64,000 nucleotides of DNA from Escherichia coli. Its GTDB lineage: Bacteria > Pseudomonadota > Gammaproteobacteria > Enterobacterales > Enterobacteriaceae. The stretch is from assembly GCF_050920415.1 (NCBI RefSeq), contig NZ_CP169309.1, one strand, 5' to 3'. The translations under genes and the position numbers were made by a program. The notes under the pieces are model-generated. The model was not told where the DNA came from, searched no databases, and worked only from the letters and a program-made list of their open reading frames with translations. This document shows positions 3,276-38,726 of the stretch, piece after piece; position 1 is the stretch's first letter; each line of letters starts with the position of its first letter.

Positions 3276-4457
3276 TTAGCGTTCAACGATCGCGATGCGG
3301 CGGTTATAGATATTCATCAGCAGCGAGATAGTCAGGCTGATAATCAGATAGACCGACATGGTCATGGCTATCGTCTCGATGGCTTGCCCCGTCTGGTTCA
3401 GCACGGTGCCAGCAAACAGCGAAACCATATCGGGATAGCCAATAGCGGCGGCAAGAGAGGAGTTTTTGACGATGTTGAGATACTGGCTGGTTAACGGTGG
3501 AATAATCACCCGCAGTGCCTGGGGAATAATGACCTGGCGTAGCGTAACCGGGTTGGGTAATCCCAGTGACCGAGCAGCTTCATGTTGACCATAAGGCACT
3601 GCCTGGATCCCAGCGCGGATAATCTCGGCGATAAATGCAGAGGTATAAACCGAAAGTGCCAGCGTTAAGGCTGCCAGTTCAGGAATTAAAACCATCCCGC
3701 CACGGAAGTTAAAGCCTCGTAGGGCTGGAACATCCCAGTGTAGTGCTGCGCCAAAAAGCCATTGCGCCAGTAAAGGCAAACCGATGATCAACACAACGGC
3801 GACCGGCCAGGTTCGGCGCAATTGTCCGGTCTTTATCTGGTACGTTTTATTAAAACGGAATATTCCAACAGAAATGGCTATAGCAATAACAACAGTCAGG
3901 ATAAACGCAATAAATCCGTCTCCCAGCTGCGGCGACGGAATATAAAGCCCACGATTGCTTAAAAAGGCCAGATCAAACGCACTCACTGCCTGGCGTGGTC
4001 CGGGCAAATTGCGCAACACGGCAAAGTACCAGAAGAAGATTTGCAGTAGCGGCGGAATATTACGGAAGATCTCAATATAAATTGTGGAAAGCTTTCGTAG
4101 CAGCCAGTTATCCGAAAGTCGTGCCAGACCGATAAAGAAGCCCAGAACAGAAGCGAATACAATACACAATGCAGAAACCAGCAGCGTATTGAGTAAGCCA
4201 ACAATGAAAACGCGTCCGTAGGTATCACCCTGCTGGTAATCGATCAAATGCTGGACAATACCGAAGCCAGCGCCGCGATCCAGAAAGGCAAAACCCGAAG
4301 TAATGCCACGATTACTGAGATTCGTCACAGTGTTGTGAAATAGCCAACCAACAATGCCGACAACAGCAACAACGGCAAGGATCTGGAATAACCAGGCGCG
4401 AACCGTAGGGTTGGCAAAGGAGAGTGAGCCTTTAACGGTTGAGCGGCGATGAGACAT
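3276..4457 (-). CDS. yhdX: amino-acid ABC transporter permease
   Basis: Membrane permease ORF; the track ORF extends to 4475, internal Met MSHRRSTVKG chosen to match the ~393-aa length I expect. Confidence 0.85.
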   Translation of the reverse strand: MSHRRSTVKGSLSFANPTVRAWLFQILAVVAVVGIVGWLFHNTVTNLSNRGITSGFAFLDRGAGFGIVQHLIDYQQGDTYGRVFIVGLLNTLLVSALCIVFASVLGFFIGLARLSDNWLLRKLSTIYIEIFRNIPPLLQIFFWYFAVLRNLPGPRQAVSAFDLAFLSNRGLYIPSPQLGDGFIAFILTVVIAIAISVGIFRFNKTYQIKTGQLRRTWPVAVVLIIGLPLLAQWLFGAALHWDVPALRGFNFRGGMVLIPELAALTLALSVYTSAFIAEIIRAGIQAVPYGQHEAARSLGLPNPVTLRQVIIPQALRVIIPPLTSQYLNIVKNSSLAAAIGYPDMVSLFAGTVLNQTGQAIETIAMTMSVYLIISLTISLLMNIYNRRIAIVER

Positions 4458-9570: not shown

Positions 9571-10728
9571 TTACTTCGATGCAGTATCTGCGGGGGTATC
9601 GGTAGTGGCTTTAACCTGCTCTCCCGGACGCGCTTTTTGCAGGCCGCTGACAATGACTTGATCGCCAGATTTCAGCCCTTCGCTAATCAACCATTTATCG
9701 CCAATCGCCTGGCTGGCAACGACAGGGCGCGCTTCAACCTGACTTTTATCGTTAACAATCAGCACGGTAGCATCACCACGCGGTGTGCGACTAACGCCCT
9801 GTTGCGGGATAAGAATGGCGTCAGGTTGAACGCCTTCATCAATCCGTGCGCGCACAAACATACCTGGCAAAAGCGTATGTTGCGGGTTAGGGAAGACGGC
9901 ACGTAGGGTTATGGATCCGGTGCTTTCATCAACGGTCACATCGGAGAATTGCAACGTACCTTTCAGGGGATAGGTTTGACCGTTTTCCATGACCAACTCT
10001 ACGTTGCTGGTGGCGTTTTCCTTATGCAAATTTCCTTGCTCTACGGATTGCTTCAGCCTCATAAAGTCGTTGCTGGATTGGGTCACATCAACATAGATAG
10101 GATCGAGCTGCTGGACAGTCGCCAGTTCAGTCGTTTGCCCATTAGTGACAAGAGCGCCTTCGGTCACAGTAGATTTGCCGATACGTCCACTAATTGGCGC
10201 AGTCACTTTGGTATAAGCGAGATTGATGCGAGCGCTTTCGACCGTGGCTTTTGCGGCAATCACGGCGGCATCGGCCTGGCGAGCATCAGCAATGGCCTGG
10301 TCGTACTCCTGCTGACTGATGTATTTCGTACCCACGAGCGGAACGTAACGTTTTACCGTCAAATGCGCGATGGCGGCGGCGGCTTCACTTTTCGCCAGTT
10401 CGCCTTTCGCGCTGTCATAACTTGCCTGATAGGTCGCGGGATCGATCTGGTACAGAGACTGGCCTGCTTGCACATCGCTGCCTTCAGTGAAATTGCGACT
10501 CAGTACGATCCCGCTAACCTGTGGGCGAACTTCGGCTATACGGTAAGCATTGGTGCGGCCTGGTAATTCAGTCTTAACTTCTAACGGGGCCGTTTTCACA
10601 ATATGAACGGTAACCTGCGGTTCACCGACGTGAGCTTTCTCTTCTCCCTTATCGTTACAACCGGCGATTAAAGCCGCGGAGATCAGAATAAAGGAGGGCA
10701 GGAGGAAAAACCTGGCATGTTTCGTCAT
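9571..10728 (-). CDS. acrE: RND efflux periplasmic adaptor (membrane fusion protein)
   Basis: 385 aa with lipoprotein signal (LIAGC); acrE-acrF operon. Confidence 0.93.
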
Positions 10729-36086: not shown

Positions 36087-38043
36087 ATGGGTATTTTCTC
36101 CATTGCTAACCAACATATTCGCTTTGCGGTAAAACTGGCGACCGCCATTGTACTGGCGCTGTTTGTTGGCTTTCACTTCCAGCTGGAAACGCCACGCTGG
36201 GCGGTACTGACAGCGGCGATTGTTGCCGCCGGTCCGGCCTTTGCTGCGGGAGGTGAACCGTATTCTGGCGCTATTCGCTATCGTGGCTTTTTGCGCATCA
36301 TCGGCACATTTATTGGCTGTATTGCCGATCATTGCGATGATCCGCGCACCATTATTGATGATTCTGGTGTGCTGTATTTGGGCCGGTTTTTGTACCTGGA
36401 TTTCCTCGCTGGTACGAATAGAAAACTCCTATGCGTGGGGGTTGGCTGGTTATACCGCGCTGATCATTGTGATTACCATTCAGCCGGAACCGCTTCTTAC
36501 GCCGCAGTTTGCCGTCGAACGTTGTAGCGAGATCGTTATCGGTATTGCGTGTGCAATTATGGCGGATTTGCTCTTTTCTCCGCGATCGATCAAACAAGAA
36601 GTGGATCGAGAGCTGGAAAGTTTGCTGGTCGCGCAATATCAATTAATGCAACTCTGTATCAAGCATGGCGATGGTGAAGTTGTCGATAAAGCCTGGGGCG
36701 ATCTTGTGCGACGCACCACGGCGTTACAAGGTATGCGCAGCAACCTGAATATGGAATCTTCCCGCTGGGCGCGGGCCAATCGACGTTTAAAAGCGATCAA
36801 TACGCTATCGCTGACGCTGATTACCCAATCCTGCGAAACTTATCTTATTCAGAATACGCGCCCGGAATTGATCACTGATACTTTCCGCGAATTTTTTGAC
36901 ACGCCGGTAGAAACCGCGCAGGACGTCCACAAGCAGCTCAAACGCCTGCGGAGAGTTATCGCCTGGACCGGGGAACGGGAAACGCCTGTCACCATTTATA
37001 GCTGGGTCGCGGCGGCAACGCGTTATCAGCTTCTCAAGCGCGGCGTTATCAGTAACACAAAAATCAACGCTACTGAAGAAGAGATCCTGCAAGGCGAACC
37101 GGAAGTCAAAGTAGAGTCAGCCGAACGTCATCATGCGATGGTTAACTTCTGGCGAACCACACTTTCCTGCATTCTGGGGACGCTTTTCTGGCTGTGGACG
37201 GGCTGGACTTCCGGCAGTGGTGCAATGGTGATGATTGCGGTAGTGACGTCACTGGCAATGCGTTTGCCGAATCCACGCATGGTGGCGATCGACTTTATTT
37301 ATGGGACGCTGGCGGCGCTGCCGTTAGGGCTACTCTACTTTTTGGTGATTATCCCTAATACCCAACAAAGCATGTTATTGCTGTGTATTAGCCTGGCAGT
37401 GCTGGGATTCTTCCTTGGCATTGAAGTACAGAAACGGCGATTGGGCTCGATGGGGGCGCTGGCCAGCACCATAAACATTATCGTGCTGGATAACCCGATG
37501 ACTTTCCATTTCAGTCAGTTTCTCGACAGCGCATTAGGGCAAATCGTCGGCTGTGTGCTCGCGTTCACCGTTATTTTGCTGGTGCGGGATAAATCGCGCG
37601 ACAGGACTGGACGTGTACTGCTTAATCAGTTTGTTTCTGCCGCTGTTTCCGCGATGACTACCAATGTGGCACGTCGTAAAGAGAATCACCTCCCGGCACT
37701 TTATCAGCAGCTGTTTTTGCTGATGAATAAGTTCCCAGGGGATTTGCCGAAATTTCGCCTGGCACTGACGATGATTATCGCGCACCAGCGCCTGCGTGAT
37801 GCGCCGATCCCGGTTAACGAGGATTTATCGGCGTTTCACCGGCAAATGCGCCGCACAGCAGACCATGTGATATCTGCCCGTAGCGATGATAAACGTCGTC
37901 GGTACTTTGGCCAGTTGCTGGAAGAACTGGAAATCTACCAGGAAAAGCTACGCATCTGGCAAGCGCCACCGCAGGTGACGGAACCAGTACATCGGCTTAC
38001 GGGTATGCTCCATAAGTATCAACATGCGTTGACCGATAGTTAA
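36087..38043 (+). pseudogene. aaeB: p-hydroxybenzoic acid efflux pump subunit AaeB, apparently frameshifted near 36327
   Basis: Recognisable AaeB sequence is split between a 146-aa frame-1 ORF (36087..36527) and a 607-aa frame-2 ORF (36220..38043). The span is 1957 nt, not a multiple of 3, versus ~1968 nt expected for the 655-aa protein I recall, so an ~11-bp deletion after ...TFIGCIA is likely. Confidence 0.75.
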
Positions 38044-38046
38044 GTC

Positions 38047-38076
38047 AAAACCGACGCCAAAAGCGTCGGTTTTTTC
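38047..38076 (+). terminator. rho-independent terminator after aaeB
   Basis: AAAACCGACGCCAAAAGCGTCGGTTTTTTC: hairpin plus T-run. Confidence 0.8.
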
Positions 38077-38134
38077 ATGGCTATACTTAGCAATGAACGG
38101 CAGAACTCGCCGCGAAACGTGACGGTGGCAACAG

Positions 38135-38407
38135 ATGAATATTTATACCTTTGATTTTGATGAGATTGAGAGTCAGGAGGATTTTTATCGCGACTTTAGC
38201 CAAACCTTTGGTCTGGCAAAAGATAAAGTACGCGATCTCGACTCTCTATGGGATGTGTTAATGAACGATGTCCTGCCGCTACCACTTGAGATTGAATTTG
38301 TTCATCTGGGAGAGAAAACGCGTCGCCGTTTTGGCGCGTTAATATTGCTGTTTGATGAGGCAGAGGAAGAGCTGGAAGGGCATTTGCGTTTTAATGTTCG
38401 TCATTAG
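38135..38407 (+). CDS. yhcO: barstar-like ribonuclease inhibitor family protein
   Basis: 90 aa, [90 protein letters not shown]; barstar-like by recall. Confidence 0.85.
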
Positions 38408-38410
38408 CGC

Positions 38411-38435
38411 AAAAAAAAGCCCCCGAACCGGGGGC
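38411..38435. terminator. bidirectional hairpin terminator between yhcO and yhcN
   Basis: AAAAAAAAGCCCCCGAACCGGGGGC. Confidence 0.7.
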
Positions 38436-38462: not shown

Positions 38463-38726
38463 TTATTTGTACAGTTCAGCCGTAGCGTGCCAGGTGTCAC
38501 CGCTACGAGCTTCAGTAATCTGGTAGGCCGTTGCGCCTTTCTCTTCCGCTTTTTTGTTCAGCATTTCACGCATATCCATTGGCGAAGACGCCACACCACT
38601 TACGGATACGGTCCCGATTGCTTCACGATTTTGTGCTTGTGCAGCATCAATGGAGTCGGCAGCGAATGCACCGAAAGAGAGAACAGAAAGTACGCTTAAT
38701 GCAGCAACAGTGGTTTTGATTTTCAT
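38463..38726 (-). CDS. yhcN: small periplasmic stress-induced protein (DUF1471/YhcN family)
   Basis: 87 aa from MKIKTTVAALSVLSVLSFGAFA (signal peptide); track ORF is extended upstream. Confidence 0.85.
   Translation of the reverse strand: MKIKTTVAALSVLSVLSFGAFAADSIDAAQAQNREAIGTVSVSGVASSPMDMREMLNKKAEEKGATAYQITEARSGDTWHATAELYK

Follow-up and report, generated by a model that had tools for sequence, protein, structure and literature searches.

Among the described systems closest to the E. coli gene yhcO is the barstar of Bacillus amyloliquefaciens (1BRS, 1AY7, 1BTA; PF01337), which like YhcO is an acidic protein of 89-90 aa with an alpha/beta fold (TM ~0.8), and which has in common with it the helix-2 motif L-D-x-L-W-D and acidic residues in helix 4 (E76/E80). 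The two proteins share just 25-27% identity, barstar residues Y29, Y30, G31, N33, T42, G43 and W44 are substituted in YhcO, and, unlike barstar, YhcO has no barnase gene in its genome and is only predicted to bind an RNase. In barstar, D39 and D35 are said, in work by Buckle, Schreiber and Fersht from 1994 and by Schreiber and Fersht from 1995, to be the dominant hot-spots that plug the barnase active site. Nearer relatives are the barstars encoded at the tldD/aaeB locus of Yersiniaceae, Morganellaceae and Hafniaceae (e.g., Yersinia pestis), which have the same flanking genes as yhcO, yhdP-tldD-aaeR-aaeXAB-(aldh), are 46-54% identical to YhcO overall and 53-67% in the C-terminal half, and end in a common tail that includes RRFGA(L/I)(I/V)LLF(E/D) and the 12 residues following it. 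These paired barstars lie a few bases (usually 4-5) behind an RNase gene and so are presumably co-transcribed with it, whereas yhcO stands alone behind a terminator with a candidate sigma-S-type -10 element of its own. Also comparable are the orphan immunity genes of T6SS, CDI and Rhs systems, which like yhcO belong to immunity families and have no toxin in the genome. Typical orphan immunity genes sit in variable arrays near toxin loci or on mobile islands and differ from strain to strain, whereas yhcO is a single-copy, vertically inherited core gene in housekeeping surroundings that is fixed family-wide, lying between aaeB and yhcN in 5425/5426 genomes rather than in a toxin/immunity array, an island or a mobile element. 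The Imm-Barstar family, with 'DxxxD' as its signature, is specific for barnase-type toxin domains (Zhang et al., PMC3482391).

Within the window, by which we mean the whole stretch of 64,000 nucleotides of E. coli DNA analysed here, yhcO occupies positions 38135-38407 on the + strand and encodes a barstar-family protein in 90 codons, with an ATG start and a TAG stop. All but one of 5426 complete E. coli genomes (5425) have the 3.7-kb region around it, so yhcO is a genuine core gene rather than an ORF that arose by chance. Its product has 21 D+E against 10 K+R residues and a pI of 4.48, has the same sequence (100% identity) as the E. coli protein crystallised for PDB 2CX6 ('hypothetical protein YhcO'), and is 77% identical to its Salmonella orthologue (5F4C). 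RefSeq gives the gene as 'yhcO: barstar family protein' and the K. aerogenes orthologue as 'probable ribonuclease inhibitor YPO3690', and one study lists the product as a 'predicted barnase inhibitor' among genes of unknown function (PMC10272880). Because RefSeq already names yhcO a barstar family protein, we class the finding as already known: the gene, its barstar fold (two crystal structures), its family name and its missing partner are on record. Scans of YhcO against NCBIfam, PADLOC and PHROGs returned, respectively, no named equivalog, no match to a known defence system and no phage family match.

An earlier note on this DNA had described an acidic 90-aa protein at these coordinates, flanked by aaeB and yhcN and with no RNase gene adjacent, and each of these points held: the ORF boundaries are exact, aaeB lies upstream on the same strand, yhcN lies downstream and converges on yhcO, and the 64-kb window contains neither an RNase gene nor a remnant of one. 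For this last point, we compared the window in six frames (tblastn) with Bacillus barnase and six enterobacterial barnase homologues, revealing only noise (best E 0.085), and a search for RNase remnants in the interval from tldD to yhcO likewise gave noise (best E 0.06). The annotated 20 kb on either side of yhcO in a 99.7%-identical E. coli genome holds no barnase-type RNase, and its genes are housekeeping in character (panF ... mreBCD, rng, yhdP, tldD, aaeR, aaeXAB, yhcO, yhcN, argR, mdh, degS, degQ ... nan genes). The only nucleases in that interval are those of rng, which encodes RNase G and lies 10 kb upstream, and of yhcG, which encodes a PDDEXK protein, and we rejected both as partners: they belong to unrelated families and separate operons, and they are equally present in genomes with paired barstars.

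We evaluated family membership by profile, fold and interface residues. The Pfam Barstar profile (PF01337) matched YhcO residues 1-81 with 37.6 bits (E 2.1e-9), above its curated gathering cut-off of 23.4 bits, which bears out the barstar-like family that the earlier note had assigned. The AlphaFold (AF2) model of YhcO (pLDDT 94.4; TM 0.98 to 2CX6) superposed on barstar chains from complexes with barnase (TM 0.77-0.81; rmsd ~2.1 A), all structure matches at E <= 0.001 besides 2CX6 and 5F4C were barstar, and a family profile built from 16 diverse relatives matched PDB barstar chains at E 1.7e-14 to 2e-12. By its identity to 2CX6, YhcO has the barstar alpha/beta fold, a three-stranded parallel sheet packed on helices. 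To map residues between the proteins we used a barstar reference sequence confirmed to be identical to 1AY7_B/1BTA, and the mapping is sound on that account: YhcO D36, W39, D40, E75 and E79 correspond to barstar D35, W38, D39, E76 and E80. The helix-2 signature, DxxxD with its Trp, is present in YhcO as D36-S-L-W-D40; its D, W and D are invariant in 16/16 aligned members of the diverse family set and are invariant or D/E across 11 Enterobacteriaceae genera, and the acidic helix-4 residues of barstar are kept as E75 and E79. The other barnase contacts of barstar (Y29-Y30-G31-x-N33 and T42-G43-W44) are absent from YhcO, which has D30-K31-V32-R33-D34, where paired barstars have a Y/x-F-G-x-N loop, and M43-N44-D45. 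YhcO is thus a PF01337 member by profile, fold and signature in which part of the canonical interface is missing.

Reading the sequence on either side of yhcO, we found elements that would set it apart as a transcription unit. The upstream gene aaeB (36087-38043, + strand; FUSC family, p-hydroxybenzoate efflux pump subunit) is broken in the window by an 11-bp deletion (GACTGGTGATC missing) between 36327 and 36328 that leaves two ORFs, at 36087-36527 and at 36220-38043; every complete E. coli genome with a match to the region (5425) carries the undeleted form, and the window copy is either a strain-specific pseudogene or a sequencing error. Behind aaeB lies an intrinsic terminator (38051-38075, + strand) with a CCGACGC/GCGTCGG stem at 38051-38069 followed by U6 at 38070-38075, folding at dG -16.9 kcal/mol (z -5.55; 0/200 shuffles as stable); it was read from the sequence, and the terminator scan did not list it. 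This terminator separates yhcO from the aaeXAB transcript. Directly after it is a candidate sigma-S-type -10 element, C-TATACT (CTATACT; 38081-38087, + strand), ~48 bp upstream of the ATG and with a C at -13 before the TATACT (context GCTATACTTA at 38080-38089), and CTATACTTA also follows the aaeB terminator in Salmonella (GACTATACTTA). Scanning for sigma-70 promoters gave no site ahead of yhcO. From its sequence, 38081-38087 is probably the sigma-S promoter element of yhcO, and such an element would explain the 214-fold RpoS dependence of yhcO in published arrays (PMC2907692). LldR binds and activates yhcO (PMC10272880), and the gene is induced after acid shift (PMC2270276). A probable ribosome-binding site, GGTGG (38124-38128, + strand), was picked out by eye 6 nt before the ATG, and GGTGGC also occurs upstream of yhcO in Salmonella, C. 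koseri and Lelliottia.

Downstream, a G+C-rich hairpin (GCCCCCG-AAC-CGGGGGC, 38419-38435) lies between the convergent yhcO and yhcN; since the U8 tract follows it on the - strand only, we read it as terminating yhcN strongly and yhcO less so. The gene yhcN itself (38463-38726, - strand; NCBIfam equivalog NF033776) encodes a DUF1471 periplasmic peroxide/acid stress protein and no RNase. As a side observation, E. coli and C. koseri have a single yhcN-like gene downstream of yhcO, and two tandem yhcN-like genes (DUF1471, YdgH/BhsA) follow it in Salmonella (locus L087, 4333-4966), in Lelliottia (L089, 4342-4978) and in contig L005 (6330-6975).

A HMMER search with the YhcO profile against 1.84 billion representative proteins returned only 132 clusters at E <= 0.001, one of which is a Xenorhabdus barstar encoded 4 bp downstream of a 156-aa PF00545 ribonuclease gene. 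The Xenorhabdus RNase carries a signal peptide; over 100 residues it shares 61% identity with Bacillus amyloliquefaciens barnase, and barnase K27, R59, E73, R83, R87 and H102 are all conserved in the alignment. Identity of 61% is unusually high for Proteobacteria against Firmicutes (the RNase gene lies at L002 5526-5996), and it suggests that the RNase-barstar cassette may have moved between Firmicutes and Proteobacteria by horizontal transfer. Homologues of the RNase are common in Xenorhabdus, Photorhabdus, Morganella, Yersinia, Serratia, Hafnia, Erwinia and Pantoea.

We then scanned 100,044 species genomes with the barstar alignment and classified the 80 loci closest to the Xenorhabdus query by local tblastn. 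At 76 of these 80 loci, which belong to Yersiniaceae, Morganellaceae, Hafniaceae and Erwiniaceae, the barstar gene is preceded, at a distance of a few bases (usually 4-5), by an intact PF00545 gene for a secreted RNase of the barnase type, an adjacency that yhcO lacks and that its positional orthologues in other families possess. Gene order in Morganellaceae is rng-yhdP-tldD-RNase-barstar, and in Yersiniaceae (Yersinia, Serratia, Rahnella, Ewingella, Rouxiella, Chimaeribacter) it is yhdP-tldD-aaeR-aaeXAB-(aldh)-RNase-barstar, which matches the place of yhcO in E. coli except for two additional genes. The RNase is absent from the order aaeB-aldh-barstar-yhcN-argR-mdh found in Citrobacter koseri, Lelliottia, contig L005 and Erwinia mallotivora, its absence having been verified in about seven Enterobacteriaceae or allied taxa, and the synteny of the yhcO locus is kept in Salmonella, Citrobacter and Lelliottia. 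Salmonella has the order aaeB-yhcO, with the aldh gene gone, and in the E. coli window only 91 bp are left between aaeB and yhcO, where Yersiniaceae hold the aldh (aldehyde dehydrogenase) and RNase genes. In Salmonella enterica, the aaeB-yhcO spacer (L087 ~3830-4000) retains a relic of the aldh 3' end (TTTCTGGAAGTGAAACCTCTGCAT vs TTTCTGGAAGTGAAGACCCTGCAC), a footprint of a second deletion at the yhcO locus.

One locus, L065 (titled Hafnia psychrotolerans), carries an internally deleted RNase pseudogene (9837-9992) in a 400-bp gap between aaeB and an intact barstar gene, with the N-terminal 22 and C-terminal 30 residues still matching (E 3e-4 and 1e-6); here RNase loss with the barstar kept is visible in progress. 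The L065 barstar is of the paired type and nearly identical to Ewingella-type sequences, so that the species label may need checking. YhcO is more similar to barstars of the aaeB/tldD locus (46-54% identity) than to barstars at a second type of locus, seen in Erwiniaceae (38%), or to Bacillus barstar (25%). That second type has the order AI-2E transporter-RNase-barstar-Virul_Fac/SrfB (Erwinia tasmaniensis L090 8001-8748; L086 3145-3874), and its barstar is the more divergent one. We set aside a 'Klebsiella pneumoniae' RNase (P0299, locus L086) as an Enterobacteriaceae RNase, given its 5.3-kb contig with Erwinia-type context, which may be a contaminant or an accessory island.

Because the cognate RNase occupies the same position in sister families and is absent in E. 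coli, the orphan state of yhcO is derived; we consider it very probable that a true barnase-partner barstar is the positional orthologue of yhcO, and that yhcO became an orphan by deletion of the RNase. Our literature search found no paper on the syntenic RNase in sister families or on the change of loop motif described below; these two observations are new here, though they are incremental comparative genomics.

To describe how the protein changed after the loss, we compared RNase-adjacent barstars with long-standing orphans (E. coli, Salmonella, Citrobacter, Lelliottia, L005, E. mallotivora and other Enterobacteriaceae sequences). The RNase-adjacent barstars carry F-G-x-N-L-D-A-L-W-D in 76/76 cases, all long-standing orphans carry (K/Q)-V-x-D-L-D-(S/T)-L-W-D, and the apparently recent losses L065 and L074 still have the paired-type motif. 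Across 11 Enterobacteriaceae genera, V32 of YhcO is invariant, as is the C-terminal half, and mean column identity is 85%; between YhcO and paired barstars, identity is 35-43% in the N-terminal half and 53-67% in the C-terminal half.

Selection was assessed with Nei-Gojobori estimates, which are approximate since dS is saturated for most pairs. In orphan pairs with estimable dS, dN/dS ran from 0.05 to 0.13 (E. coli-Salmonella 0.049; E. coli-C. koseri 0.068; Salmonella-C. koseri 0.086; C. koseri-Lelliottia 0.096; Lelliottia-contig L005 0.134), and in paired barstars from 0.07 to 0.34. Closer orphan pairs had pN 0.08-0.15 against pS 0.56-0.82, and all orphan pairs together had a mean pN of 0.215 and a mean pS of 0.778. 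By these substitution patterns, yhcO is clearly under purifying selection. In the binding segment (codons 27-46), non-synonymous divergence relative to the rest of the gene was 1.36x in orphans and 0.73x in paired barstars, a comparison of 20 codons without a formal test, and the faster change in orphans would fit a lost original contact surface. These observations are suggestive of a constraint on that surface that has been partly relaxed or redirected, with the acidic 'plug' residues retained.

Origin and continued selection are shown by the comparisons above, and from them and the likeness to barstar we infer how YhcO may act. An ancestor of these Enterobacterales very probably carried a two-gene cassette downstream of tldD/aaeXAB(-aldh), comprising a Sec-exported barnase-type RNase and then a barstar shielding the producer's own RNA. 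Clean deletion then removed the RNase gene in the lineage to Enterobacteriaceae and in Erwinia mallotivora, the aldh gene went later in E. coli and Salmonella, and yhcO was kept, transcribed alone from a putative sigma-S-type promoter in stationary phase and under stress. The cytoplasmic YhcO would then block barnase/N1/T1-type RNases, presumably as a competitive plug in the manner of barstar, by placing the acidic surface of helix 2 (D36, W39 and D40, with E75 and E79 behind them) in their basic active site. Such a plug would give the cell standing ('orphan') immunity to RNases of this kind that enter its cytoplasm from outside; the change from F-G-x-N to (K/Q)-V-x-D would alter peripheral specificity. 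YhcO is most likely still an RNase inhibitor giving standing immunity, possibly retargeted, and the whole package of a partner-less barstar whose RNase was deleted in the lineage and which still serves in this way has, in our judgement, slightly better than even chances of being right.

Evidence bearing on this RNase-inhibitor reading points both ways. An immunity role is plausible because T6SS, T7SS, Tc, MuF and PVC systems deliver toxin domains of the barnase type, in every case paired with Imm-Barstar (PMC3482391), and the suggestion of the earlier note that yhcO may shield against a foreign effector is possible. Against it, F-G-x-N, invariant in 76 paired barstars, is replaced in every long-standing orphan. 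Looking for a toxin source aimed at E. coli, we found no barnase-type gene in 50,697 phage genomes and none, in the plasmid collection, on plasmids from Escherichia, Salmonella, Klebsiella or other Enterobacteriaceae; genuine plasmid matches to barnase-type RNase were nearly all from Bacillus or Clostridium. The secreted RNases of neighbouring genera have a signal peptide only, and to our knowledge they are not known to enter other bacteria. In the literature mentioning yhcO we found no report of YhcO inhibiting an RNase, and no paper turned up that linked barstar to orphan immunity.

The reading that survives best beside standing immunity, though we think it unlikely, is that YhcO is an inhibitor retargeted after the RNase loss to a new stationary-phase partner, with the (K/Q)-V-x-D loop as the adapted interface and with another endogenous nuclease, an RNA-binding enzyme or a non-nuclease protein as candidate partner kinds. 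Persisting purifying selection in a genome that holds no barnase homologue would fit such a switch, as would a replaced loop common to all long-standing orphans with V32 invariant in 11 genera, the concentration of divergence from paired barstars in the N-terminal half (35-43% vs 53-67%), and control by LldR and by a candidate sigma-S-type promoter of its own. However, D36/W39/D40 and E75/E79 are invariant or nearly so, which is unexpected if RNase binding was given up, and residues 27-46 are the most variable segment in the orphan clade, not the most conserved. Genomic context offers no partner either: aaeB and yhcN have unrelated functions and separate transcripts. A more far-reaching proposal, which we find more doubtful again, is that YhcO is a domesticated ex-immunity protein whose scaffold was rewired, through the K-V-x-D loop and a new sigma-S promoter, to make it a regulator or inhibitor of an unrelated endogenous target in stationary phase.

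That yhcO is an evolutionary relic, functionless and with its decay yet to come, is very unlikely. The cognate RNase is gone, the interface loop is changed with the binding segment relatively relaxed, and the literature gives no yhcO phenotype and lists its function as unknown (PMC10272880), all of which a relic would share. Against decay, dN/dS is only ~0.05-0.13 between genera near synonymous saturation, 11 genera retain 85% mean column identity with an invariant C-terminal half, 5425/5426 E. coli genomes keep the locus, and yhcO is strongly expressed and regulated. Moreover, both neighbours, aldh and the RNase gene, were completely deleted in the same period, so unneeded DNA at the yhcO locus does get removed.

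Beyond the window, we searched for the RNase in whole chromosomes and across the species, with a scope limited to barnase homologues detectable by BLAST. At the protein level (tblastn), four chromosomes that YhcO matched, three of E. coli and one of K. pneumoniae, gave no match to barnase or to the Xenorhabdus RNase, and the same searches detected the pair in two Proteus mirabilis chromosomes (RNase 501893-502192, barstar 502201-502467) as a positive control. At the DNA level (blastn), a Serratia RNase-barstar query matched 4984 of 5426 E. coli genomes at yhcO, through the 3' part of the barstar gene only; its RNase part, for which that barstar match is an internal positive control, had no match in any of the 5426. 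Xenorhabdus and 'Klebsiella'-assembly RNase-barstar queries also had no match in the 5426 genomes, and these two are uninformative because they missed even yhcO. Among the best 120 of 1549 RNase homologues, there was no entry from Escherichia, Salmonella or Citrobacter. Searching the plasmid collection also revealed that the PLSDB 'plasmids' NZ_OL790696.1, NZ_CP134663.1, NZ_CP141089.1, CP125156.1, NZ_OL790811.1 and NZ_OL790812.1 are mislabelled chromosomes (4.1-5.4 Mb) of E. coli, K. pneumoniae and Proteus mirabilis, which served as accidental protein-level controls and are a caveat for plasmid-based inference; YhcO matches in this collection were only to mislabelled chromosomes or very large replicons. 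In principle a barstar gene can lie apart from its barnase gene, and Erwiniaceae have a second RNase-barstar locus type, but with whole E. coli chromosomes, three RNase DNA queries against 5426 genomes and the best RNase homologues all empty for this genus, the first option of the earlier note, a cognate barnase-type RNase elsewhere in the same genome, is unsupported and extremely improbable.

For the biology of E. coli and its family, these results give yhcO a concrete and testable history, in which sister families still hold the barnase-barstar cassette at the same locus. They also make yhcO a clean natural case of what becomes of an immunity or inhibitor protein once its toxin is lost; were domestication true, it would be a documented instance of a toxin-immunity protein recruited into core stress physiology. 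The gene bears as well on whether core 'orphan' inhibitors act as standing enterobacterial protection against the RNase toxins of competitors, and the RNases and barstars of Serratia and Yersinia are the obvious reagents for assigning a function to one of the remaining E. coli y-genes.
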